Shown here one piece after another: positions 1-13,071 of a stretch of 13,071 bases of DNA. The translations under genes and the position numbers were made by a program. The DNA comes from a virus (lineage: Duplodnaviria > Heunggongvirae > Uroviricota > Caudoviricetes). The stretch's first letter is position 1. Each line of letters begins with the position of its first letter. The notes below the pieces were generated by a model. The model saw nothing but the letters and a program-made list of their open reading frames with translations. It was not told the DNA's origin and made no database searches. The DNA lies in IMG/VR virus record IMGVR_UViG_2681813316_000016, positions 1 to 13,071 of that record; one strand, written 5' to 3'.

Positions 1-287
1 GATTCAAGGCATTTACGGGAGAAAAAATCGGCTCAAACATGAAGAAATGAAATGACTGAGTCAGCCGAGAAGAATTTCCCCGCTTATTCGCACCTTCCTT
101 AGGTGTTAGCAGAATATAGCATCAAAGTCGAAACCGGTAGAAAAAATATTGGTGATTATTTCGCTGCATTTGGAACTGGAACAACAATGATTATTAGCAT
201 GATTGCTTTTTCCAGTCATAAGAATGAGTCGTGTTAATTTTTTCTATTCAATAGGAAATTATCATGTCATCAGAATATGAACAACTA

Positions 288-380
288 CGGTGACTTCTGC
301 GCTAAACGGGGACGTTTATGCGCACATACAATCCAAACTCTCTTCTCCCTCCACAGATGCAGAAATACACCTGCGATTTT
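288..380. repeat. Direct repeat copy 1 (~93 bp), near-identical to 2611..2703
   Basis: Read directly: cggtgacttctgcgctaaacggggacgtttatgcgcacatacaatc...cacctgcgatttt recurs at 2611..2703 with about 5 mismatches by eye; includes a GGGGA Shine-Dalgarno plus ATG (318). Confidence 0.8.
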
Positions 381-458
381 TTGCATTCGGTGTTTTTGGC
401 AGCCAAGAACAGGGAGTCTCTGTTTGTCTGGCGGCTAAAGGTGATATGGAAATCGTGA
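318..458 (+). CDS. Hypothetical small ORF (46 aa); N-terminal ~21 aa paralogous to the ylcH-like ORF at 2641
   Basis: ATG 318 preceded by GGGGA; first ~21 codons lie inside repeat copy 1 ([21 protein letters not shown]), then diverge. May be a non-functional duplicate. Confidence 0.2.
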
Positions 459-627
459 TGTCTTAGCCTAAAGTAGTTGCAACAGTTGGAGCGATTATGG
501 TGGTAGTAGTGATCATCGCGCCCCCCATATGCAAGGGTTGACGACATTATTTATCCGGCGCTATATTCTGTGCGTTGCCGCAAAATCGGCGCACGGGATT
601 GGCGTCCCGGACATCAAAACGACGCAT

Positions 628-648
628 AACCGCGTTCGCGGTTTTTTT
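628..648 (+). terminator. Candidate intrinsic terminator (short GC stem ACCGC/GCGGT, tetraloop, run of 7 T)
   Basis: aaccgcgttcgcggttttttt read directly; lies inside the 5' extension of track ORF 575..1420. Confidence 0.4.
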
Positions 649-811
649 ATGCGCAGTGCACGTCTACACAAAAATTATGGTGGGCTGTGTGAGGGCTTCT
701 TCGGAAGCGCCGGATTTCGTTTTGACCGGTTACGCCAACCTTGCACAGTCCACCACCAGTCGATTGGCGTCGTCGGTGGTGATAGCTCAAATTCAAAACG
801 AGATTATCGCT

Positions 812-1420
812 ATGGTCACTCAGCTCGCATTCCGCGATGTAAAATTCACTCCTATAAATCACAACAACCAGATCTGGTTTACCAGCAAAGAATTGGCGGC
901 AGCATTAAAATATGCCAGCACCAAAGCAGTAACCGACATCTACAACAAAAATATTGATGAGTTTACTGACGGAATGTCTCAGGTCGTCGAATCAACGACC
1001 TCAGGAAATTATCGTAAGAAGACTCGCATTTTCTCCCTCCGTGGCGCCCATCTGATCGCCATGTTCGCCCGCACTCCTGTGGCCAAAGAATTCCGCCGCT
1101 GGGTGCTGGATATTCTCGATCGAGAAATTCAACAATCCCCAATCACAAAACAATTCACTGATAACGAACTTTGCACACTTGCTTGGTTATGGCGGGCAAG
1201 TGACACAATGTTAACCGCTTGCCAAAACGTCACTCCGCTTCTTCAGGTAGCAAAACACCGCGAAGCCGGTCGCTTCACTTCAATCGAACAAGAATATCCC
1301 CGGATACTCAATAAGGCACAGGCAATCCTTGCCAGAGAAACGGCACATGTAAAATTCCGGCCGTGGCAGGATGATAAGTGGAGTCGAGTATTGACGCATT
1401 TACGTTCTGAACGGCTGTAA
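812..1420 (+). CDS. Bro-N domain protein (phage antirepressor / Roi-like DNA-binding protein)
   Basis: Track ORF 575..1420; N-terminus from ATG 812 (MVTQLAFRDVKFTPINHNNQIWFTSKELAAALKY...IFSLRGAHLIAMFARTPVAKEFRRWVLDIL) matches the Bro-N pattern. Start uncertain (ATG 812 or 677); the 628..648 terminator-like hairpin argues against 575. Confidence 0.6.
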   Translation: MVTQLAFRDVKFTPINHNNQIWFTSKELAAALKYASTKAVTDIYNKNIDEFTDGMSQVVESTTSGNYRKKTRIFSLRGAHLIAMFARTPVAKEFRRWVLDILDREIQQSPITKQFTDNELCTLAWLWRASDTMLTACQNVTPLLQVAKHREAGRFTSIEQEYPRILNKAQAILARETAHVKFRPWQDDKWSRVLTHLRSERL

Positions 1421-1720
1421 TAAAGTTGCGGGAGAGAAATGCCGCTAGTATTTTGTAATTAATTGAATGCTGACGGTTTAATGAGAAGTCAAGAACACTA
1501 CTTGTACTATAATCGTTCGATGTTAGTGAGGGTTTGATGCAAAAAAATGAAGTGATTGACCCTAAATTTGCGCGATCAGCGACAGATTGTACACCGAGAT
1601 CCTGTGGGCTGGAATTTGCAGAGAAATACCGAAAATGATATCCAATATTGTTTTCAGTTCCTACATCATACCTGATAAGGGTATAATCATAAAAATTAGG
1701 ATAATTCAAGTTATAATTGT

Positions 1721-2137
1721 ATGAATAAAAACGACCTTGAAGCATTATCTGACACTAGGCTTAATGAGGCCAAATGCTTGCTTGATCATGGCTTTTTTCA
1801 TGGTGCATATTATCTTTGTGGGTATGCAGTTGAATGTGCATTGAAGGCCTGTATTGCCAAGTCATTTTTACAACATGAGTTTCCAAACAAAAAAGTCGTA
1901 AATGATTCATATACTCATGATTTGTCGCAACTTCTCAAAATTGCCAACTTACATCAAATTTTGATTGCTGACGCAAAAAATGATGTTTCGTTGGAGATTA
2001 ACTGGTCGGTCGTTAAAGACTGGAGCGAGCAATTTAGATACGACAATAACATAAGTAAAGCTATGGCCGAACAATTGTTTGATGCTGTAGGTGACCAAAA
2101 TTCTGGAGTTTTGAAATGGGTAAAAGCACACTGGTAA
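1721..2137 (+). CDS. HEPN-like domain protein (138 aa), first gene of an AT-rich two-gene cargo cassette
   Basis: Track ORF; core GAYYLCGYAVECALKACIAK...SYTHDLSQLLKIANL resembles the HEPN helical signature (A-x-E-x-ALKA ... H-x-L-x-x-L); no canonical R-x(4-6)-H seen; visibly AT-rich; no obvious Shine-Dalgarno at ATG 1721. Confidence 0.55.
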   Translation: MNKNDLEALSDTRLNEAKCLLDHGFFHGAYYLCGYAVECALKACIAKSFLQHEFPNKKVVNDSYTHDLSQLLKIANLHQILIADAKNDVSLEINWSVVKDWSEQFRYDNNISKAMAEQLFDAVGDQNSGVLKWVKAHW

Positions 2138-2517
2138 TCGGCAGAGAGTTGACAAAAGATATGGAATTCTCAGGTCAATTTTTGTTAAAAAAACTCAAGT
2201 TACAGAATTTAACTATTGATGCTGCAATGTGGTTTTATTACCCAGATCTATCTTGGAGATATATTTTAGTTATCAGTGACTTCTCAGAACGTGGGCCGGC
2301 AGAAATATATAGAAAAATCAGTGAGATAAATAGAAATAGCATATCAAAAAAGTATAAGCCGATACCATTAGAAGCAATTGAGGCTAAGGGGGATTCAGCT
2401 TTTGTTTATAAAATGTTAAAAGGATTTGCTAGAGTCAACGATGGTAAAGTTCGCGTTTCTAATTCTATGGTAAATGGTTTAGAAATCGTTGACTGTCTGA
2501 TCTATGAGTTAAAATAA
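2116..2517 (+). CDS. Uncharacterized protein (133 aa; 118 aa if started at ATG 2161), partner of the HEPN-like gene
   Basis: Track ORF; start 2116 overlaps upstream gene by 22 nt, with GGAG about 8 nt upstream; no recognisable nucleotidyltransferase GS..DxD motif; AT-rich; no family recognised. Confidence 0.5.
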   Translation: MGKSTLVIGRELTKDMEFSGQFLLKKLKLQNLTIDAAMWFYYPDLSWRYILVISDFSERGPAEIYRKISEINRNSISKKYKPIPLEAIEAKGDSAFVYKMLKGFARVNDGKVRVSNSMVNGLEIVDCLIYELK

Positions 2518-2588
2518 GAAATCTCTTGCTGGGTATCATTATTGTTTAAATGACTTTTGATTTTCAATAATCAACTTGTCATAATTAA

Positions 2589-2617
2589 GTCACCGGAGTT
2601 TGAACTCCTCCGGTGAC
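2589..2617. other. Strong inverted repeat (gtcaccggag / ctccggtgac, 10-bp arms) at the left edge of repeat copy 2
   Basis: Read directly; not followed by a T-run so not a typical intrinsic terminator; absent from the equivalent position of copy 1. Confidence 0.6.
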
Positions 2618-2703
2618 TTCTGCGCTAAACGGGGACGTTTATGCGCACATACAATCTAAACTATCTTCTCCCGTCACAGATGCAGAAATGCACCTGCGAT
2701 TTT
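2611..2703. repeat. Direct repeat copy 2 (~93 bp), partner of 288..380
   Basis: Same offset (2323 bp) for repeat start and for the embedded ATG (318 vs 2641). Confidence 0.8.
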
Positions 2704-2742
2704 CTTTATCCAGCGTTTGACCTCTGCGGAGGTGAAGCGTGA
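2641..2742 (+). CDS. ylcH: Small protein (33 aa), YlcH-like, translationally coupled to ninB/ybcN
   Basis: GGGGA Shine-Dalgarno 5 nt upstream of ATG 2641; stop TGA 2740..2742 overlaps GTG start of next gene (GTGA); position immediately upstream of ybcN matches DLP12 ylcH as recalled. Symbol from memory, unverified. Confidence 0.4.
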
Positions 2743-3194
2743 ACCTCCCACAAGACGGCATCAAACTGCATCGCGGTAACTTCACCGCTATCGGTCAGCA
2801 GCTCCAGCCTTATTTGGAAGACGGCAAGTGCTTTCGCATGGTGCTTAAACCGTGGCGCGAGAGACGCAGTCTTTCCCAGAATGCACTCAGCCACATGTGG
2901 TACAGCGAAATCAGTGAATACCTCATCAGCAGGGGTAAAACGTTCGCCACTCCAGCTTGGGTAAAAGATGCTCTCAAACACACATATCTCGGTTATGAAA
3001 CCAAAGACCTGGTTGATGTCGTAACCGGTGATATCACCACTATCCAGTCGTTACGCCATACCTCCGATCTTGATACCGGAGAGATGTATGTCTTCCTGTG
3101 TAAGGTTGAAGCCTGGGCGATGAATATTGGTTGCCATCTGACTATTCCGCAGAGCTGCGAGTTCCAGCAGCTCCGCGACAAGCAGGAGGCGTAA
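2739..3194 (+). CDS. ybcN: NinB/Orf-family recombination protein (YbcN-like, 151 aa)
   Basis: Track ORF; GTG start with GGAGGTGA upstream; [12 protein letters not shown] resembles lambda NinB RSLDQNRKLWA motif; synteny with ninE-ybcO-rusA. Confidence 0.8.
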
Positions 3195-3364
3195 TGGCTA
3201 CACCGCTTATTCGTGTCATGAACGGACACATCTACAGAGTACCAAATCGTCGTAAGCGTAAACCTGAGCTGAAGCCATCCGAAATACCAACACTGCTCGG
3301 GTATACCGCCAGCCTGGTTGATAAAAAATGGTTGCGACTGGCAGCAAGGAGGAGTCATGGCTGA
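3194..3364 (+). CDS. ninE: NinE-like protein (56 aa)
   Basis: ATG 3194 overlaps ybcN stop (TAATG), GGAGG upstream; in-frame part of track ORF 3131..3364; C-terminus YTASLVDKKWLRLAARR resembles lambda NinE as recalled. Confidence 0.55.
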   Translation: MATPLIRVMNGHIYRVPNRRKRKPELKPSEIPTLLGYTASLVDKKWLRLAARRSHG

Positions 3365-3647
3365 TTTGAGAAAAGCAGCGCGTGGTCGGGAATGCCAGGT
3401 AAGAATCCCTGGCGTATGTAATGGCAACCCTGAAACGTCTGTACTGGCACATATCCGGCTGACTGGATTGTGCGGCACCGGTACCAAACCGCCAGACCTG
3501 ATTGCCACCATTGCATGTTCTGCCTGCCACGACGAAATCGACCGCCGCACACATTTTGTCGATGCTGCATATGCAAAAGAATGCGCGCTGGAAGGTATGG
3601 CGAGAACACAGGTTATCTGGCTGAAAGAGGGGGTTATTAAGGCGTGA
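3357..3647 (+). CDS. ybcO: YbcO-like protein (DUF1364, Cys-rich putative nuclease)
   Basis: ATG 3357 ([23 protein letters not shown]...) within track ORF 3318..3647, GGAG upstream; Cys pairs CQV..C and CSAC suggest zinc binding; matches recalled DLP12 YbcO. Confidence 0.75.
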
Positions 3648-4006
3648 ATACCTACAGCATCACATTACCCTGGCCTCCGAGCAATAATCGCTATTACCGC
3701 CATAATCGCGGGCGCACGCACGTCAGCGCAGAGGGGCAGGCATACCGCGATAACGTCGCCCGAATCATTAAAAACGCAATGCTGGATATCGGCCTGGCTA
3801 TGCCTGTGAAAATCCGTATTGAGTGCCACATGCCGGATCGCCGTCGCCGTGACCTGGATAATCTGCAAAAAGCCGCTTTTGACGCACTCACTAAAGCAGG
3901 TTTCTGGCTAGATGATGCTCAGGTCGTTGATTACCGCGTTGTGAAGATGCCTGTTACCAAAGGTGGGAGGCTGGAACTGACCATCACCGAAATGGGGAAT
4001 GAATGA
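3644..4006 (+). CDS. rusA: RusA Holliday-junction resolvase (120 aa)
   Basis: Track ORF; [36 protein letters not shown]... matches E. coli RusA as recalled; GTG start overlapping ybcO stop. Confidence 0.95.
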
Positions 4007-4143
4007 TGTTTGAGTTTAATATGGCAGAACTTCTTCGCCACCGCTGGGGGCGTCTGCGCTTATATCGTTTCCCCGGTTCTGTTTTGACCGATTACCGAAT
4101 ACTGAAGAATTACGCCAAAACCCTGACAGGAGCAGGAGTATGA
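4003..4143 (+). CDS. ylcG: YlcG-like small protein (46 aa)
   Basis: ATG 4003 overlapping rusA stop; [46 protein letters not shown]; position between rusA and the Q homolog as in DLP12. Confidence 0.55.
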
Positions 4144-4228
4144 AGTCAGAGATAACAATCAACTAATACTGTTTTGTTGATTTTTGCTTGTAATTGGCGT
4201 TCTGGTCTGATTTTTGTGGAGTAAGTTG

Positions 4229-4612
4229 ATGCGTGATATTCAGATGGCTCTTGAGCGTTGGGGAGCGTGGGCGGCTAATAATCATGAAGATGTGACCTGG
4301 TCGTCCATTGCCGCCGGTTTTAAGGGATTAATTCCTTCAAAAGTAAAATCTCGCCCACAATGTTGTGACGATGACGCGATGAGCATTTGCGGGTGCATGG
4401 CCCGTCTGAAAAAGAACAACAGCGATTTGCACGATTTATTAGTAGATTATTATGTAGTCGGTATGACATTCATGTCACTGGCAGGTAAGCATTGCTGCTC
4501 TGATGGTTATATCGGGAAAAGGTTACAGAAGGCTGAGGGTATAATTGAAGGGATGTTAATGGCATTAGATATCCGGTTAGAGATGGATATCGTTGTTAAT
4601 AACTCTAATTAA
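4229..4612 (+). CDS. quuD: Late-gene antiterminator Q homolog (QuuD-like, 127 aa)
   Basis: ATG 4229 within track ORF 4214..4612, GGAG upstream; [24 protein letters not shown]...; Cys-rich centre; location upstream of the lysis cassette. Confidence 0.75.
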
Positions 4613-4645
4613 TATGCCAATTGTTTACTAAAAATTATTAAAAAT

Positions 4646-4663
4646 GGGGCGTTGAGACGCCCC
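4646..4663 (-). terminator. Intrinsic terminator hairpin (GGGGCGT / ACGCCCC, 7-bp stem, 4-nt loop), U-run on the minus strand
   Basis: Read directly; on the minus strand the stem is followed by ATTTTTAATAATTTTT; on the plus strand an A-tract precedes it. Lies between convergent quuD and porin gene. Confidence 0.5.
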
Positions 4664-4801
4664 CAAAAATAAAGGGTAATATATAACAGAAGGTTTATAT
4701 AGTTAGAAGCAAGGTTGTGCTTCTAAAGGAAGTGGCTTGAGGGAGCCACTTATATGTTGGGGAGGGAACGCCTCCCGCAACATATCTTTTTCGTAATCAG
4801 A

Positions 4802-5899
4802 TTAGAACTGGTAAACCAGACCTACAGCAACGATGTCATCAGTGCTTACACCGAGTGCTTTAGTGAAGTCATTTTTGTCAAGCAGGTTGATTTTGTAATC
4901 AACGAAAGTAGACATATTTTTGTTGAAGTAATAGGTTGCACCTACATCAACATATTTGACTAAGTCCTGATCGCCCCATACTCCAAGATCCTTACCTTTA
5001 GATTGCAGGTAAGCAACGGACGGACGCAGACCGAAATCGAACTGATATTGTGCAACAGCTTCGAAGTTTTGGGCTTTATTAGCAACGAAGTGATCAGCAA
5101 ATACAGTCATATTCTGGGTTTCAGAATAGGTAGTGGCCAGGTAAATGTTGTTAGCGTCATATTTCAGACCTGCGGCCCAAACTTCTGCATTTTTACCGGA
5201 AGCAAATACTTCAGGAAGAACTTTCCCTGCATTAACTTGAGTGTCGGTACGATCAGATTTCGCATAAGTTGCACCGATACCGAATCCTTCGTATTCATAG
5301 GTAGCAGAGAAACCGAAGCCATCACCGTTACCTTCAGTGTAGTTATCGAAATCGCTACGATCGTTTTTGCCTTGGTACTGAGCAGCAAAGTTCAGACCAT
5401 CAACCAGACCAAAGAAGTCGTTGTTACGATAGGTTGCAACACCAGTGGTGCGACCAGTCATGAACACATCTGTTTGGGTCCAGGTATCGCCACCGAATTC
5501 TGGCAGAACGTCAGTCCACGCACCGATGTCGTATGCTACACCGTAGTTACGGCCGTAATCGATGGAGCCGTAGTCACCGAATTTCAGGCCAGCGAAGGCA
5601 AGACGGGTTTTATCTTTGGAGGAACCTTGAGATTCAGCGCGGTTGCCTTTGAATTCATATTCCCACTGACCGAAACCAGTCAGTTGATCGTTGATTTGGG
5701 TTTCACCTTTGAAGCCAAGACGGGCATAAGTAGTATCACCATCATCTGCATCATTAGAGGAGAAGTAGTGCTTAGCATTAACTTTCCCGTACAGATCCAG
5801 CTTGTTACTGTCTTTATTATAAATTTCAGCTGCCTGAGCAGACATCGCCATCAGTACTGATGCAGCTACAGCAGAAATTGCCACTGTTAATTTTTTCAT
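4802..5899 (-). CDS. nmpC: Outer-membrane porin, NmpC/OmpD family (365 aa, intact, with signal peptide)
   Basis: Track ORF; signal peptide [23 protein letters not shown] then [16 protein letters not shown]...; porin-typical aromatic-rich strands and C-terminal VYQF. Confidence 0.9.
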
Positions 5900-6180
5900 C
5901 GTGAGCCCTTTTTTTTGAACTATTATTAAAAAATGATGTCACTGCGCGATAAATATTCATCTAATCAATGTGATTATTTCAAGATGTAAGTTTTGGTTTC
6001 TCGTTTAATTTGTGAAGTAGATCTCTATTTTTATCTAAACTTTTTTCTATCGAATCCTATTCATGGCTCTTGGCTGAATAAAAATAAATCTATTAGCCAA
6101 TTTATATTAATGGCTGTTATTTATAAGCGCTCTATAATTTGAAGGTTCAATTTAAACTGGCTAAAAATAACGCTGGAAAT

Positions 6181-6202
6181 TATTTGTTGGTTATTTGTTG
6201 AG
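6181..6202. repeat. Tandem 11-bp direct repeat (ttatttgttgg / ttatttgttga)
   Basis: Read directly in the AT-rich region upstream of the porin gene; one helical turn per unit suggests a protein-binding site. Confidence 0.4.
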
Positions 6203-6269
6203 ATTTGCTTATGTATTTGTAGTGGTGTTTTCAATACTCGGTAGCATTCTCGCAAATATCATTTAGTGG

Positions 6270-6297
6270 TTTACGTACGTAAAAAATTGGTTATGCT
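6270..6297 (+). promoter_or_regulatory. Candidate late promoter (pR'-like): TTTACG / TTACGT ... TATGCT
   Basis: Hexamers read by eye with about 15-16 bp spacing; only supported by the downstream plus-strand terminator and the position upstream of the lysis cassette. Confidence 0.25.
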
Positions 6298-6327
6298 GTT
6301 AAGAGTGGTTACTTCGTCACACAGCTT

Positions 6328-6360
6328 AAACCCGCCGTCGAGCGGGTTTTTCCATTTTTT
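6328..6360 (+). terminator. Intrinsic terminator (AAACCCGC / GCGGGTTT stem, 6-nt loop, T-run); candidate tR'
   Basis: Read directly; no plus-strand gene upstream, so it would end a short leader transcript, as with lambdoid tR'. Confidence 0.55.
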
Positions 6361-6472
6361 GAGTCTCGATATTAGCTGATAACCCAATACCTGAGTTATT
6401 CACTGACTCCGAGTCTGTTACGTTTCGTAGTATTCCCTCAATTTACACCCGCTTTGTCTGCGAGGTGGGGTT

Positions 6473-6688
6473 ATGAAATCCATGGATAAGTTAACAACGG
6501 GTGTCGCCTATGGCACCTCAGCAGGTAGTGCCGGGTACTGGTTTTTACAGCTGCTCGATAAAGTCACGCCCTCACAGTGGGCAGCAATAGGTGTGCTGGG
6601 TAGCCTGGTATTTGGCCTGCTGACGTACCTGACAAACCTTTATTTCAAGATTAAAGAAGATAAGCGCAAGGCTGCGAGAGGTGAATAA
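6473..6688 (+). CDS. essD: Class II holin / pinholin, phage 21 S-like (71 aa), with dual-start motif MKSM
   Basis: Track ORF; [26 protein letters not shown]...[19 protein letters not shown] closely resembles S21 as recalled; two transmembrane segments; ATGs at 6473 and 6482. Confidence 0.9.
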
Positions 6689-7185
6689 TGCCTCCATCAT
6701 TACGAAAAGCTGTTGCTGCTGCTATTGGTGGCGGGGCTATTGCTATAGCATCTGTGTTAATCACTGGCCCAAGTGGTAACGATGGTCTGGAAGGTGTGAG
6801 ACATAATCCTTACAAAGACATAGTTGGTGTATGGACTGTATGTTACGGGCATACAGGAAAAGACATCATTCCCGGTAAAACGTATACCGAAGCAGAGTGC
6901 AAAGCCCTCCTGAATAAAGACCTTGCCACTGTCGCCAGACAAATTAACCGGTACATCAAAGTCGATATACCGGAAACAACGCGCGGCGCTCTTTACTCGT
7001 TCGTCTACAACGTGGGTGCTGGCAATTTCAGAACATCGACGCTTCTTCGCAAAATAAACCAGGGTGATATTAAAGGCGCATGTGATCAGCTACGGCGCTG
7101 GACATACGCTGGCGGTAATCAATGGAAAGGACTGATGACTCGCCGTGAGATTGAGCGTGAAGTCTGTTTGTGGGGGAAACAATGA
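6688..7185 (+). CDS. rrrD: SAR endolysin (phage 21 R-like lysozyme, 165 aa)
   Basis: Track ORF; N-terminal Gly/Ala-rich signal-anchor-release segment [20 protein letters not shown]; start overlaps holin stop (TAATG). Confidence 0.9.
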
Positions 7186-7640
7186 GCAGAGTAACCGCGA
7201 TTATCTCCGCTCTGGTTATCTGCATCATCGTCTGCCTGTCATTGGCTGTTAATCATTACCGTGATAACGCAATCGCCTACAAAGAGCAGCGCGATAACAA
7301 GGCCAGTGAACTAGAGAAGGCGAACGCCACCATCGCTGACATGCGGAAGCGTCAACGTGATGTAGCAGAACTCGACGCAAGATACACAAAGGAGCTTGCT
7401 GATGCTAACGCGACTATCGAAAGTCTCCGTGCTGATGTTTCTGCTGGGCGTAAGCGCCTGCAAGTCGCCGCCACCTGTGCAAAGTCAACGACCGGAGCCA
7501 GCGGCATGGGCGATGGAGAAAGCCCAGGACTTACAGCAGATGCTGAACTCAATTATTACCGTCTCCGAAGTGGAATCGACAAGATAACCGCGCAGGTTAA
7601 CTACCTGCAGGAATACATCAGGACGCAATGCCTGAAATAA
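7182..7640 (+). CDS. rzpD: Rz i-spanin (inner-membrane spanin subunit)
   Basis: ATG 7182 within track ORF 7170..7640, overlapping endolysin stop; N-terminal transmembrane segment then coiled-coil-like charged region. Confidence 0.85.
7396..7587 (+). CDS. rzoD: Rz1 o-spanin lipoprotein, embedded in the +1 frame of Rz
   Basis: Track ORF fully inside Rz; lipobox-like VSAC with Cys22; Pro-rich mature part ([12 protein letters not shown]). Confidence 0.8.
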
Positions 7641-7663
7641 TTTTTTTGCAAATCACAAAGTCC

Positions 7664-7687
7664 ATTTAATGAGCCTCGCGATGCGGG
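7664..7687 (+). terminator. Intrinsic terminator after Rz (GCCTCGC...GCGGGGC stem, 7-T run)
   Basis: gcctcgcgatgcggggcttttttt read directly, about 25 nt after the Rz stop. Confidence 0.6.
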
Positions 7688-7809
7688 GCTTTTTTTACAT
7701 CTGAATTTCACAGCGCATCTCACGCGCATATTACATCACCCGAGCCTTTCAGAAAGTTGAGCCTGAGAACTGCCGTATATGGTGGCGACCATCTCGGGGC
7801 GGCTTTTCT

Positions 7810-8334
7810 GTGAGACAGGCTCACTTTCTAAAAGGTAAAGACGCTATGAACCAATTAGAAGAAAAGCTTCAAAGAATGATTTCCTTATACAAGGAAGATA
7901 ACTGCCAAAAAGTTCCTGAAAACATCGCAGAGTTAATGGAATTGGCAAGTGAATTTTCTGGCATGCTTAAGTCGTCAGGTGTTCGGTCAGCGTTCTTTGT
8001 TGAAATGCTGATGCACGGCGGACTTATGACAACAATGAGACGTGTAATGGAAGACCAGAGAAAAGAACCTCCTCAGGTATACGTTTTGTCATCGAAGAAA
8101 ACTGGGCTAACCAAAATTGGGTATTCATCCAACATTCCACAACGCATCAAATCGCTTGGCAACTCTGGACCAGACTGCTTGAAGCTTGAGTGCCTGATCC
8201 CTGGTGGAAGAGAAACTGAAAACATGCTTCATCGCAAATTTGCCGCAAAGAGAAAGCACGGTGAATGGTTCGCCCTGTCCAAGGATGACATTGAGGGATT
8301 GAAATCTGTAGCGATTACTTCTGATGGCTATTAA
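7810..8334 (+). CDS. T5orf172 / GIY-YIG-like domain protein; cargo gene where lambda carries bor
   Basis: Track ORF (GTG 7810; ATG 7846 would give MNQLEEK...). C-terminal half VYVLSSKKTGLTKIGYSSNIPQRIKSL...ETENMLH...GEWF fits the T5orf172 pattern; N-terminal ~80 aa unrecognised. Confidence 0.6.
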   Translation: MRQAHFLKGKDAMNQLEEKLQRMISLYKEDNCQKVPENIAELMELASEFSGMLKSSGVRSAFFVEMLMHGGLMTTMRRVMEDQRKEPPQVYVLSSKKTGLTKIGYSSNIPQRIKSLGNSGPDCLKLECLIPGGRETENMLHRKFAAKRKHGEWFALSKDDIEGLKSVAITSDGY

Positions 8335-8648
8335 TGCTTGTTTAGAGCAATTTTCATAACAACTCTTCATTACAAAGCCCATCTACTGGTGGGCTTGATA
8401 ATGAAACCGTGATTTACATCCCCACAATCCGGGTATGTAAAAGATAGTTCAGGCGAGAACGGATTTAACTAAATCTGTGCGTCACCAGTTAACGGCAGTA
8501 CCACGAAACAACCCAAGCCAGTAAGTGGGGAAATAACACCGGCAGCCACTGAAAGATGAACCTCCTGCCTTATGGCAAAAAAGATTCTTTGTGGTGGCGG
8601 ACTGATGGAAAGACATCCTAATTTCAGCCAAACATTGAAGGAGTTGTT

Positions 8649-8720
8649 ATGTCAGCAGAAGGTTTCAATAACCCATCAAAATTCCGGGATGAGTGGGATA
8701 GCAGCGTAAAGAGTAAGTGA
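8649..8720 (+). CDS. Hypothetical 23-aa peptide with strong Shine-Dalgarno (GAAGGAG)
   Basis: GAAGGAG 5 nt upstream of ATG 8649; MSAEGFNNPSKFRDEWDSSVKSK; sits in a ~680-bp gap without long ORFs. Sequence only. Confidence 0.2.
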   Translation: MSAEGFNNPSKFRDEWDSSVKSK

Positions 8721-9012
8721 TGCCATCACAAAAGCCATTCCCTACAGAGTGGCTTTGATAATGGCTTATACCCTACACGGGATAACTTAACTGATATCCC
8801 TTTTAAAGGATAAAGGTATTCAAGCCTGACACATCATGCGCTGTATCGTCGCCGTATTCCCGTATTAACAGAGACCGTAGCCCGACGGGGAACTCCTTCT
8901 GCGCGAGTGTGCGGGAATAATCAAAAACGATGCACACTGGGGTTACCGGGTACACATATTTCATCATGCCAGCGAGTCCGGTTCTGGCACGGAAGAAACC
9001 GGACGTTATGAT

Positions 9013-9423
9013 TTAGTGCGGAAATATTTGTGTAGTGTTCTGAATGTTCTCAGTAAAGAGTAATGAATTATCAAAGGTATAGTAATACCTTTTGTTTTCG
9101 TGGATATTTGTAATCCATCTGAAAACCCCTGCTGTAGCAAGATTTTTCCTGTATTCGTAAAATGATAACTCTCCTGATTTGAATCCTTTTAATGTGGCTT
9201 CTATAAGGCATTTATTTTTTGAAAATCTTACATTTACAACCTTACCCTGTCCTTTTATTAAAACCGTATTATCGTTTTCAAGAACAAGATGAATATTCTC
9301 TGTGGCTAAATAGTAAATGTAATGTGAGACATTGTGACGTTTTAGTTCAGAATAAAACCAGTGATAGTTTAAATTATTTCGCACTTTATCGAATATTTGT
9401 TTAAAAATGGCAACCTGAGCCAT
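9013..9423 (-). CDS. ybcV: YbcV-like protein (DUF1398 family, 136 aa)
   Basis: Track ORF 9013..9438; ATG at 9423 ([13 protein letters not shown]...) has AAGG about 7 nt upstream; AT-rich; resembles DLP12 YbcV as recalled. Confidence 0.6.
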
Positions 9424-9427
9424 TGTA

Positions 9428-9453
9428 GTACCTTCCATGTGATATGAAGGTAC
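9428..9453 (-). promoter_or_regulatory. Inverted repeat (GTACCTTC / GAAGGTAC, 8-bp arms, 10-nt loop) enclosing the ybcV Shine-Dalgarno
   Basis: Read directly; in the minus-strand mRNA the 3' arm contains GAAGG just upstream of ATG 9423, so it could be an operator or a translation-sequestering hairpin. Confidence 0.4.
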
Positions 9454-9480
9454 CTAGTCTGCACGATTATCTAAATTGCT

Positions 9481-9714
9481 TCAATCTGGTCTGACCTGCT
9501 TTCTGAGCAATTCAGTAATGTCACTCTTTTCTTTGTTTGCTTCAGGCGAAACTCTTTTTTCTGAGCACAGTCTTCGGCGGCAGGCTTCAATGACCCAGGC
9601 TGAGAAATTCCCGGACCCTTTTTGATCAAGAGCGATGTTAATTTGTTCAATCATTTGGTTAGGAAAGCGGATGTTGCGGGTTGTTGTTCTGCGGGTTCTG
9701 TTCTTCGTTGACAT
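9481..9714 (-). CDS. ylcI: YlcI-like small protein (DUF3950), probable ribbon-helix-helix DNA-binding fold
   Basis: Track ORF; RNIRFPNQMIEQINIALDQKGSGNFSAWVIEACRRRL resembles the Arc/Mnt strand-helix-loop-helix layout; directly upstream of ybcV on the same strand. Confidence 0.55.
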   Translation of the reverse strand: MSTKNRTRRTTTRNIRFPNQMIEQINIALDQKGSGNFSAWVIEACRRRLCSEKRVSPEANKEKSDITELLRKQVRPD

Positions 9715-9779
9715 GAGGTTGTCCCGTATTCAGTGTCGCTGATTTGTATTGTCTGAAGTTGTTTTTACGTTAAGTTGAT

Positions 9780-10100
9780 GCAGATCAATTAATATGATAC
9801 CTGCGTCATAATTGATTATTTGACGTGGTTTGATGGCGTAGATGCACGTTGTGACATGCAGATGATAATTATTATCATTTTGCGGGTCCTTTCCGGCGAT
9901 CCGACAGGTTACGGGGCGGCGACCTCGCGGGTTTTCGCTATTTATGAAAATTTTCCGGTTTAAGGCGTTTCCGTTCTTCTTCGTCGTAACTTGATGTTTT
10001 TATTTAAAATACCCTCTGAAAAGAAAGGAAACGACAGGTGCTGAAAACGAGCTTTTGGGCCTCTGTCGTTTCCTTTCTCTGTTTTAGGCCGTGGAATGAA
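9780..10100 (+). other. Lambda-type cos region (cosQ, cosN, cosB); 12-nt cohesive end GGGCGGCGACCT at 9914..9925
   Basis: ...gatccgacaggttacg / gggcggcgacctcgcgggttttcgctatttatgaaaattttccgg matches the junction of lambda right and left genome ends as recalled; immediately upstream of Nu1. Confidence 0.9.
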
Positions 10101-10102
10101 CA

Positions 10103-10623
10103 ATGGAAGTCAACAAAAAGCAGCTGGCTGACATTTTCGGTGCGAGTATCCGTACCATTCAGAACTGGCAGGAACAGGGAATGCCCGTTCTGCGAGGCGG
10201 TGGCAAGGGTAATGAGGTGCTTTATGACTCTGCCGCCGTTATAAGATGGTATGCCGAAAGGGATGCTGAAATTGAGAACGAAAAGCTGCGCCGGGAAGTT
10301 GAAGAACTGCGGCAGGCCAGCGAGACAGATCTCCAGCCAGGGACTATTGAGTACGAACGCCATCGACTTACGCGTGCGCAGGCCGACGCACAGGAGCTGA
10401 AAAATGCCAGAGACTCCGCTGAAGTGGTGGAAACCGCATTCTGTACTTTCGTGCTGTCGCCGGATCGCAGGTGAAATTGCCAGTACTCTCGACGGGATCC
10501 CCCTGTCGGTGCAGCGGCGTTTTCCGGAACTGGAAAACCGACATGTTGATTTCCTGAAACGGGATATCATCAAAGCCATGAACAAAGCAGCCGCGCTGGA
10601 TGAACTGATACCGGGGTTGCTGA

Positions 10624-10649
<26 letters not shown>
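10103..10649 (+). pseudogene. nu1: Terminase small subunit Nu1, split by an apparent +1 frameshift near 10459..10462
   Basis: Track ORF 10103..10474 ([36 protein letters not shown]...FVLSPDRR*) and ORF 10404..10649 (...IAGEIAS...SEYIEQSG) each match lambda Nu1 in different frames; window has gtcgccggatcgc where lambda has gtcgcggatcgc as recalled. Confidence 0.7.

Positions 10650-13071
<2,422 letters not shown>

Follow-up and report, generated by a model that had tools for sequence, protein, structure and literature searches.

Why should the head of a phage recombination operon occur twice, with accessory genes in between? The question is raised by the virus record IMGVR_UViG_2681813316_000016 (IMG/VR; Caudoviricetes), of which a stretch of 13,071 nucleotides (nt; positions 1 to 13,071), called the window here, was analysed as a whole; it comes from an E. 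coli prophage of the lambdoid, DLP12/phage-82-like type. An earlier note, made from the letters of the window, had described two near-identical direct repeats of about 93 bp and proposed that the 2.3 kb between them was a cargo segment, gained, or liable to be lost, by homologous recombination between duplicated ylcH-like 5′ sequences. The repeats are, in fact, the core of a conserved leader of ~160 nt that heads the ylcH-ybcN (orf/ninB) operon, and not the footprint of an insertion. The copies of this leader very probably serve as homology arms that move an anti-repressor module (isrK-C4-ant), and the cargo that follows it, among lambdoid phages.

The two copies of the leader

The repeats, found at 288-380 and 2611-2703 (offset 2323 bp), match at 88 of 93 positions, with mismatches at 334, 340, 350, 351 and 367 (C/T, C/A, T/G, C/T and A/G, respectively). 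The exact identity, which the earlier note had proposed to compute, includes a block of 46 bp without mismatches (288-333). No exact repeat found in the window is longer; for comparison, the longest exact repeat in 100 shuffles had a mean length of 13 and a maximum of 16. Weaker homology flanks the core (67% over 258-287, 58% over 234-257 and 60% over 381-395, with none beyond), and the repeat search paired 234-395 with 2557-2718 at 81%. As the same arrangement is present in 176 complete genomes, an assembly artefact can be rejected.

Most of the anatomy first described has stood. Each copy has a Shine-Dalgarno-like GGGGA, an ATG (318 and 2641) and 21 shared codons; an inverted repeat with 10-bp arms overlaps copy 2 by 7 nt; and the downstream open reading frame (ORF) of 33 amino acids (aa), known as ylcH or orf33, reaches into ybcN/ninB, whose GTG start at 2739 it overlaps. 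Other parts had to be amended. Copy 1 does lack the 10-12-bp stem of the inverted repeat, but it holds a degenerate version of it, with a 6-bp stem, at 266-294. Similarly, the downstream copy is not the only one that continues as an ORF, since copy 1 is also open (46 aa) and overlaps a small hydrophobic ORF. Finally, the enclosed DNA is not a single 2.3-kb segment, but at least three separate units.

At the sequence level, copy 2 has all the features of the leader, namely a promoter-like -35/-10 pair, followed by a first hairpin (hairpin 1, the inverted repeat of the earlier note) and then by a second one that contains the start codon (hairpin 2). Copy 1 has them in part: hairpin 2 is intact, promoter and hairpin 1 are degenerate, and its ORF, called ylcH′, has no overlap with ybcN. 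The right-hand pair of hairpins folds at -34.4 kcal/mol (z = -6.9) and the left-hand pair, folded over 263-327, at -19.6 kcal/mol (z = -3.9). A single leader lies directly upstream of a ybcN-type gene in phage 82, K-12 DLP12, phi80, HK225 and HK639, and the alignment of related prophages suggested in the earlier note revealed that such single-copy sites are common (thousands of genomes, besides K-12 DLP12 and phage 82). The same note had set a common upstream regulatory element against a recombination scar, and the repeat proved to be such an element, the conserved and structured head of the orf/ninB operon.

Structure and conservation of the leader

A scan of IMG/VR viral contigs with a 15-mer from inside the element gave 120 loci (numbered L below), 86 of which have the element. 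Among 79 unique leaders, the -35 hexamer is TTGATT or TTGATA in 70, the spacer is 17 nt long in 69, and the palindrome TTGAT(T/A)-N6-(A/T)ATCAA is present in 57; in the window, the -35 is half of such a palindrome, TTGATT-N6-AATCAA (2557-2574). The hexamers are conserved although the flanks upstream of the leader are unrelated between phages, and the record of phage 82 annotates putative -35 and -10 elements at this site. Judging from its sequence, the palindrome looks like an operator, but with a spacing that does not fit the FNR box, TTGAT-N4-ATCAA. It also covaries, for instance as TTGATA..TATCAA in phi80.

Hairpin 1, which the phi80 record annotates as IR4 and that of phage 82 as a ‘possible regulator-binding site’, occurs in 44 sequence variants. 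The optimal fold is one clean stem (mostly 7-14 bp) with a loop of ~9 nt in all but two, the hairpin of L007, which folds differently, being one more exception, and the stability ranges from -5 to -23 kcal/mol across the variants. Hairpin 2 occurs in nine variants, where the start codon in the 3′ arm is either ATG or GTG; its left-hand version belongs to an exact repeat family and covaries across relatives. When both strands were compared, hairpin 2 was more stable on the + strand in 8 of its 9 variants. Hairpin 1 showed no bias, with 16 variants favouring each strand, and may act at either the RNA or the DNA level.

RNAalifold on a MAFFT alignment recovered only part of hairpin 1, as stem variants were mis-registered, and a covariance-model alignment (103 instances, 48 distinct) was used instead. 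In this alignment, which is fitted to the model and hence favours structure, 95.2% of all cells are paired, compared with 77.4% in shuffles, and 17 of the 20 base pairs show double changes. The covariation score reaches 0.493, compared with 0.166 in shuffles (0 of 500 reach the observed value) and 0.03-0.07 with slid partners, and these slid controls stay far below the observed score despite the model-fitted alignment.

The ORF that follows is conserved as well. Of the 82 unique versions in which it could be scored, 79 have a length of 31-34 aa, the other three being left copies, and 80 have the stop-start overlap (ATGA or GTGA); its reading frame is kept through several 3-nt indels. Both ylcH and the overlap precede genes of the YbcN type (151 aa) and of the lambda-Orf/NinB type (145-149 aa), and as the leader stands before two very different Orf-family genes (among L015-L134, e.g., L021, L030, L035 and L120), it is more conserved than the gene downstream of it. 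No protein family or informative name was found for either ylcH or ylcH′. Codons 12-21 of ylcH (CACAGATGCAGAAATGCACCTGCGAT; 2677-2702 and 354-379) show almost no synonymous variation, though the leaders are only ~75% identical elsewhere. This invariance extends outside the 15-mer seed and suggests a further constraint at the nucleotide level. In an alternative structure given by RNAalifold, CUGCGC in the 5′ arm of hairpin 2 could pair with G(A)UGCAG in these codons; the positions are invariant and, consequently, show no covariation.

Since the start codon lies inside a covarying hairpin and the stop-start overlap is conserved, the leader would most likely control the translation of ylcH and, through stop-start coupling, that of the orf/ybcN gene. 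More tentatively, the ~160-nt leader might be an undescribed cis-regulatory unit that gates the orf-rusA/rap operon in enterobacterial lambdoid phages in answer to a specific signal or factor, and that is, additionally, a portable homology arm for accessory or defence-like cargo. If this holds, a cis-regulatory unit attached to an anti-repressor module could allow such cargo to hop between phage backbones.

A search of Rfam over 200-2800 (E≤1) gave no match to the leader, the only matches being isrK, C4, c4-a1b1 and one chance small nucleolar RNA. Likewise, nothing on the leader was found in the searchable literature under ylcH, orf33 or phi80 IR4, and in that literature and the record annotations the element appears without a tested function. 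Two terminator readings were rejected. Hairpin 1 (2589-2617) is not called by the terminator scan and has no U-run, its tail being UUCUGCGC. On the other hand, the conserved hairpin CACAGATGCAGAAATGCACCTGCGATTTT with its T-run, read as the terminator of a small RNA (sRNA) of ~110 nt, was flagged by the scan; K-12 and other alleles, however, have coding-type changes (AATTCTTTG, GATATTTTG) in place of the T-run.

Recombination within the leader

How the second copy came to stand upstream can be approached through the relatives. All two-copy loci observed (the window, L005, L007, L012, L059, L060 and L071) share one left junction, one kind of spacer and the isrK-C4-ant module, and the same left part is found in three truncated loci in which the right copy is not covered (L096, L119 and L126). 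The spacer is present once per genome in 301 E. coli genomes. As far as these sequences go, they point to a single origin of the ylcH′::spacer junction. Homology to every ylcH allele stops at ~395, with module-specific sequence from 396 onwards; this first left junction must have been an illegitimate join, and not the product of homologous recombination. Recombination between ylcH-like 5′ sequences, as proposed in the earlier note, would account, as gain or as loss, for the leader switch points and chimeras described below, but not for that first join. The idea of a local duplication of the 5′ sequences did not survive, because the two copies of L060 are only about 77% alike: the right one is of a different hairpin-2 type (76-78% identical to the window repeat), while the left one stays window-like (92-93%).

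Six left copies were compared segment by segment. Their far-upstream flanks are 58-65% identical, the background level of unrelated sequences; promoter and hairpin 1 are 61-85% identical, and the core reaches 87-100%. The spacers, in turn, fall into groups that are 97-99% identical internally and about 80% between groups. These identities indicate that the same module stands behind at least five unrelated left arms and that the switch lies inside the leader.

Cargo-free chimeras were sought with a synthetic junction query. Two E. coli genomes, NJS001 and STEC799, have the window's own left flank followed by a single leader, which agrees with copy 1 as far as 333, degenerate hairpin 1 included, and beyond that point has all five copy-2 variants, continuing into ylcH-ybcN; the crossover is thus located within the 46-bp exact block. 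In the SCU-313 lineage, the equivalent chimera is present in two viral contigs (L056 and L099) and 46 E. coli genomes, with roughly 123 genomes carrying the cargo. Recombination in the leader is documented by these joints, and the two-copy pair is, on this comparison, a recombination substrate. It has been reported that lambdoid phages and defective prophages, DLP12 included, undergo Red- or RecA-dependent exchange over short diverged homology, to which Orf contributes (PMC3945230), and these experiments provide a tested mechanism for such joints.

In the explanation that we favour, the right copy (2557-2742) would be the working head of ylcH-ybcN-ninE, while the left copy (234-395) would be a partly decayed leader, fused at an old illegitimate junction to the spacer and, behind it, to isrK-C4-ant. 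As a near-identical leader core is present in many phages, it would offer a homology arm. We infer the acting enzymes and the direction of each event as follows: recombination by RecA or phage Red/Orf between the ylcH′ of the module and the ylcH leader of another phage would place the module, and what lies downstream, behind a new left arm, and the 2,323-bp block would be removed when the two copies recombine with each other, or when a left copy does so with a single leader.

Several points weigh against this explanation. The single-copy chimeras could be ancestral recipients and not deletion products, and NJS001 diverges by 3-4% to the right of ylcH. The better conservation of the left-copy core (87-100%) than of the spacer could reflect function and not repeated recombination. 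The survey, in turn, was seeded with a 15-mer, so that the invariance of the seed stretch is ascertained and more distant leaders were missed. Additionally, work on rusA indicates poor expression of the DLP12 operon unless a promoter is inserted (PMC4118853); given this poor expression in K-12, the promoter of the leader may be weak or repressed.

In a rival reading, there have only been gains: the chimeric single-copy loci would be ancestral unoccupied sites, each having a leader allele of its own, the module would have entered each lineage by homologous exchange and the repeats would never have yielded a deletion. We regard this as possible, though rather unlikely. It agrees with the cargo-free form being common in the SCU-313 lineage and with left copies that carry a lineage-specific promoter and hairpin 1, as would be expected from a recipient. 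The right side of NJS001 is not closely derived either: compared with L003, NJS001 and STEC799 show no differences over ~1 kb leftward, and a divergence of 3-4% from ybcN on. This means that NJS001 is not a simple recent deletion derivative, but would require phage exchange or a second event; as a test of loss versus gain, flank divergence does not polarise the direction. By contrast, the sole leader of NJS001 is degenerate (6-bp stem), whereas the great majority of the single leaders surveyed are canonical, with a strong stem, and this is easier to explain by decay while the leader was redundant. Its decayed promoter, palindrome and hairpin 1 fit, if weakly, such a decay followed by loss. Moreover, in mechanistic terms no event is easier than a deletion between direct repeats of 93-160 bp that share an exact block of 46 bp.

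The conservation of the left core could also have another origin, although we find it improbable: the left copy might be a working regulatory duplicate that drives or gates ylcH′ and the hydrophobic ORF (perhaps also isrK-ant), so that its similarity is selected and recombination is incidental. Not only is the core more alike across lineages than the spacer, but hairpin 2 is intact in 5 of the 6 left copies, and L071 and L059 retain a canonical or near-canonical promoter and hairpin 1. Furthermore, the ylcH′ frame is open across an in-frame 3-nt indel and its conserved tail has two changes, both of them synonymous; the hydrophobic ORF, too, remains an ORF in spite of a 6-nt indel, which is in frame. 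The left copy is damaged at key points in different lineages, however, as L005 has an ATA start and a GGTGA loop in hairpin 2, and L071 a frameshift that leads to a different product of 40 aa. In the window, promoter, palindrome and hairpin 1 are degenerate, and a TAG at codon 7 breaks the hydrophobic ORF in the window type, found in about 176 genomes; for its part, the isrK module, with a promoter of its own, works in Shiga toxin (Stx) phages without the leader. Considering the lost start codon of L005, the shifted frame of L071, the degenerate upstream features of the window and the broken hydrophobic ORF, we see the left copy mainly as a relic that persists through continued recombination with intact leaders, with a residual regulatory role being possible.

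A mobile-element footprint (a target-site duplication, the att sites of a cassette or the repeat pair of a diversity-generating retroelement) is extremely improbable, since, despite the accessory genes between direct repeats and the inverted repeat adjoining one copy, there is no transposase, integrase or reverse transcriptase among the genes between the repeats, the leader is single in most related phages surveyed, the L060 copies are about 77% alike, the five differences are not adenine-specific, and the inverted repeat is also found at single-copy sites. For the same reasons, a transposon, insertion sequence (IS) or integron cassette (no recombinase gene between the repeats, which are a conserved leader of 93-160 bp) and a diversity-generating retroelement (differences not adenine-specific, no reverse transcriptase) were rejected, as was an att site at a tRNA, the tRNA/tmRNA scan giving no genes.

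Cargo, surroundings and known systems

Table 1. Features of the window in the region of the leader copies
Feature	Position	Strand	Remarks
IS5 element end	1..102	.	abuts prophage DNA at TTAG (99-102)
Left promoter counterpart	234..262	+	degenerate TTAATT-17-AATTAT; ~58% identical to 2557-2585; palindrome decayed
Left hairpin 1	266..294	+	degenerate; 6-bp stem, 17-nt loop
Repeat copy 1 core	288..380	+	3′ arm of hairpin 1, hairpin 2, start codon and first 21 ylcH′ codons
Left hairpin 2	299..323	+	GCGCTAAACG-GGGA-CGTTTATGCGC; Shine-Dalgarno-like GGGA in loop, ATG (318) in 3′ arm
ylcH′ ORF (46 aa)	318..458	+	first ~26 codons homologous to ylcH/orf33
Small hydrophobic ORF	446..541	+	from alignment; TAG at 464-466 (codon 7) shortens the window version
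Promoter-like site of isrK-C4-ant	538..567	+	TTGACG-18-TATATT; 10/12 match, promoter scan
isrK-like sRNA with terminator (628-643 + T-run)	576..648	+	Rfam RF01394, 61.9 bits (gathering 50)
C4-type antisense RNA	673..760	+	Rfam RF01695, 82.5 bits (gathering 45)
Anti-repressor gene ant (202 aa)	812..1420	+	Bro-N PF02498, 9.6e-14; P22AR C-terminal PF10548, 1.9e-16
HEPN-domain protein (138 aa)	1721..2137	+	Pfam PF05168, 3e-6; weak PADLOC PDC-M28A, 1.8e-7
Partner gene (133 aa)	2116..2517	+	22-nt overlap with HEPN gene; PHROG 5760, function unknown
Right leader promoter-like site	2557..2585	+	sigma70-like TTGATT-17-CATAAT; predicted by promoter scan
Right leader hairpin 1	2589..2617	+	covarying 10-12-bp stem, conserved 9-nt loop YYUGAACNN
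Repeat copy 2 core	2611..2703	+	88/93 identity to 288-380
Right leader hairpin 2	2622..2646	+	GGGA loop; ylcH start codon in 3′ arm
ylcH/orf33 (33 aa)	2641..2742	+	TGA stop overlaps ybcN GTG start
ybcN	2739..3194	+	recombination mediator of the Orf/NinB family; first long gene in the nin operon under the right leader

The 2.3 kb between the copies (Table 1) are a composite of a leader remnant with a small ORF, the isrK-C4-ant module and a HEPN pair in a variable slot of its own, between ant and the right leader. The left counterpart of the promoter (234-262) is not picked up by the promoter scan, and the core of copy 1 is annotated in L003 as a truncated pseudogene by PGAP. The hydrophobic ORF encodes 31 aa in phage IdasGreatGrand (MEIVMSWPKVVATVGAIMVVVVIIAPPICKG) and 29 aa in the SCU-313 type, and its stop sits within the -35 of the isrK promoter; no family match was found for it, and it is absent from the protein collection. 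Its equivalents lie at about 2659-2754 in L005 and about 2650-2739 in L007, and its overlap with the ylcH′ frame gives a layout like that of mok/hok. In one genome (NZ_CP039834.1, O157:H7 MB41-1), ~1.3 kb (about 1786544-1787877) are found between window positions 380 and 400, which suggests an IS-sized insertion right at the junction of the left repeat and the spacer.

The isrK-C4-ant module is self-contained, as the same module is found elsewhere in the nin region of Stx phages, where homology begins at window position 529, that is, at the module's own promoter. Its anti-repressor gene also matches PHROG anti-repressor Ant families. A sub-threshold Rfam match to c4-a1b1 (‘a1, b1 targets of C4 antisense RNA’; 38.4 bits versus a gathering score of 46.7) at 561-613 overlaps the isrK-like RNA, which hints that the module works like P1 immI. 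The order of its parts is comparable to that of the c4-icd-ant system of phage P1/P7 immI. Upstream of the ant start, exactly 45 stop-free codons run in frame from an ATG at 677 (677-811), overlapping the C4 RNA.

The HEPN pair differs from the backbone in its GC content (30-39% versus about 50%), and the scan for promoters and terminators gave none that was convincing for it. Its slot holds four different cargos among relatives, the alternatives being a 169-aa protein, a 118-aa protein and three ORFs that include a DNA polymerase III theta homologue. Reportedly described by Juhala et al. (2000), ‘morons’ are autonomous accessory cassettes of phage genomes, expected to deviate from the backbone in composition, to be missing from close relatives and to have their own promoter and terminator. 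The HEPN pair, with its deviant GC and with other genes in the same slot of relatives, may be one. The isrK-ant module has a promoter-like site and an sRNA terminator of its own. In the viral contig L059, identity to the window is 98-100% over 3039-4612, which corresponds to the latter half of ant, the HEPN pair and the sequence up to the right leader, and only about 85% in the left repeat, spacer and isrK/C4, a step that implies a crossover inside the ant gene.

To the left of copy 1, the window begins with the end of an IS5 element (98-100% matches to annotated copies in phage P1, phage 434 and many E. coli records), located 186 bp upstream of the repeat. It cuts the left flank short in this strain and is not part of the repeat system. 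The IS5 end lies within or beside a reverse-strand gene, which is intact in the IS-free relative L003 (E. coli NIST0056). This relative is 99.7% identical over 99-3300, the alignment beginning at window position 99, and indicates the natural left flank: O, P and one reverse-strand gene, followed by the first repeat. On the right, the gene order from 2555 is ylcH/orf33, ybcN/orf151, ninE, ybcO, rusA, ylcG and Q, and the sequence shares ~95% identity with K-12 DLP12 and with phage 82 (record X92588). A highly variable interval (L004, L007/L012, L006 and L008-L010) separates the replication genes from the leader, and it may contain an alpha/beta hydrolase and EmrE, PD-lambda-1/DUF4041 (SNIPE-associated), Rha, an N15 gp45-like gene or DNA polymerase III theta. 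This interval is consistent with an accessory or defence hot spot whose right boundary is the leader.

As a process, all this is the well-known homology-driven mosaicism of lambdoid phages, and the finding is sound but ordinary in kind. Its peculiarity lies in the cargo, which brings along a conserved operon leader of its own as left homology arm. As a natural case, the locus cleanly illustrates the exchange of accessory genes between lambdoid prophages, with cargo-bearing and cargo-free chimeric forms both present in sequenced E. coli, including Shiga-toxin-producing strains, and it helps in reading the variation of prophages in the ren-ninB slot, where anti-repressor, HEPN and defence-like genes are found. 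The leader itself is the most interesting by-product, as a widespread, covarying structure ahead of phage recombination genes that has no match in Rfam or the searchable literature.

Some parts of the locus can be compared with systems described elsewhere. In lambda, the leader element is absent, and a classical terminator, tR2 (between ren and ninB), occupies the same position just upstream of orf/ninB. Although tR2 is also a strong hairpin, it has TTTTTATTT directly behind its GC-rich stem and lacks an upstream ORF, whereas hairpin 1, with the tail UUCUGCGC and a conserved loop, stands just downstream of a promoter-like site and ahead of hairpin 2 and ylcH. The HEPN cassette, for its part, resembles HEPN-MNT pairs in its small HEPN protein, its two overlapping genes and its location in an AT-rich accessory segment of a prophage. 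However, the HEPN gene comes first, and the 133-aa partner matches no nucleotidyltransferase or other family (no match in Pfam, NCBIfam or PADLOC); a HEPN-MNT toxin-antitoxin pair was, consequently, rejected in spite of the HEPN domain. The anti-repressor module is, by its sequence, like isrK-orf45-anrP of Gifsy-1 (PMC4825925), with a promoter, an isrK-like sRNA and its terminator, a C4-type RNA and a Bro-N anti-repressor. Unlike in Gifsy-1, no separate orf45 was found; the 45 codons, which recall it, run in frame into ant, and in the window this module is the cargo, not the repeat.

The closest counterparts of the leader are the region upstream of orf33-orf151 in phage 82 (X92588), DLP12 ylcH-ybcN and phi80 IR4, as copy 2 and its flanks are the same region (about 95% identical over 2555-3300), with the putative -35/-10, the inverted repeat, the ribosome-binding site and the 33-aa ORF that overlaps the start of orf151/ybcN. 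These phages have one copy, while the window has a partial second one, 2,323 bp upstream, fused to the anti-repressor module. Regarding the process, the locus agrees with the lambdoid mosaicism described by De Paepe et al. (2014, PMC3945230) in that the joints lie in a short conserved stretch with unrelated flanks, where identity steps up, the GC content of the accessory genes is deviant, and DLP12-type prophages take part. In contrast to ordinary mosaicism, the homology arm would here be a structured regulatory leader that is attached to the cargo and creates direct repeats on landing.

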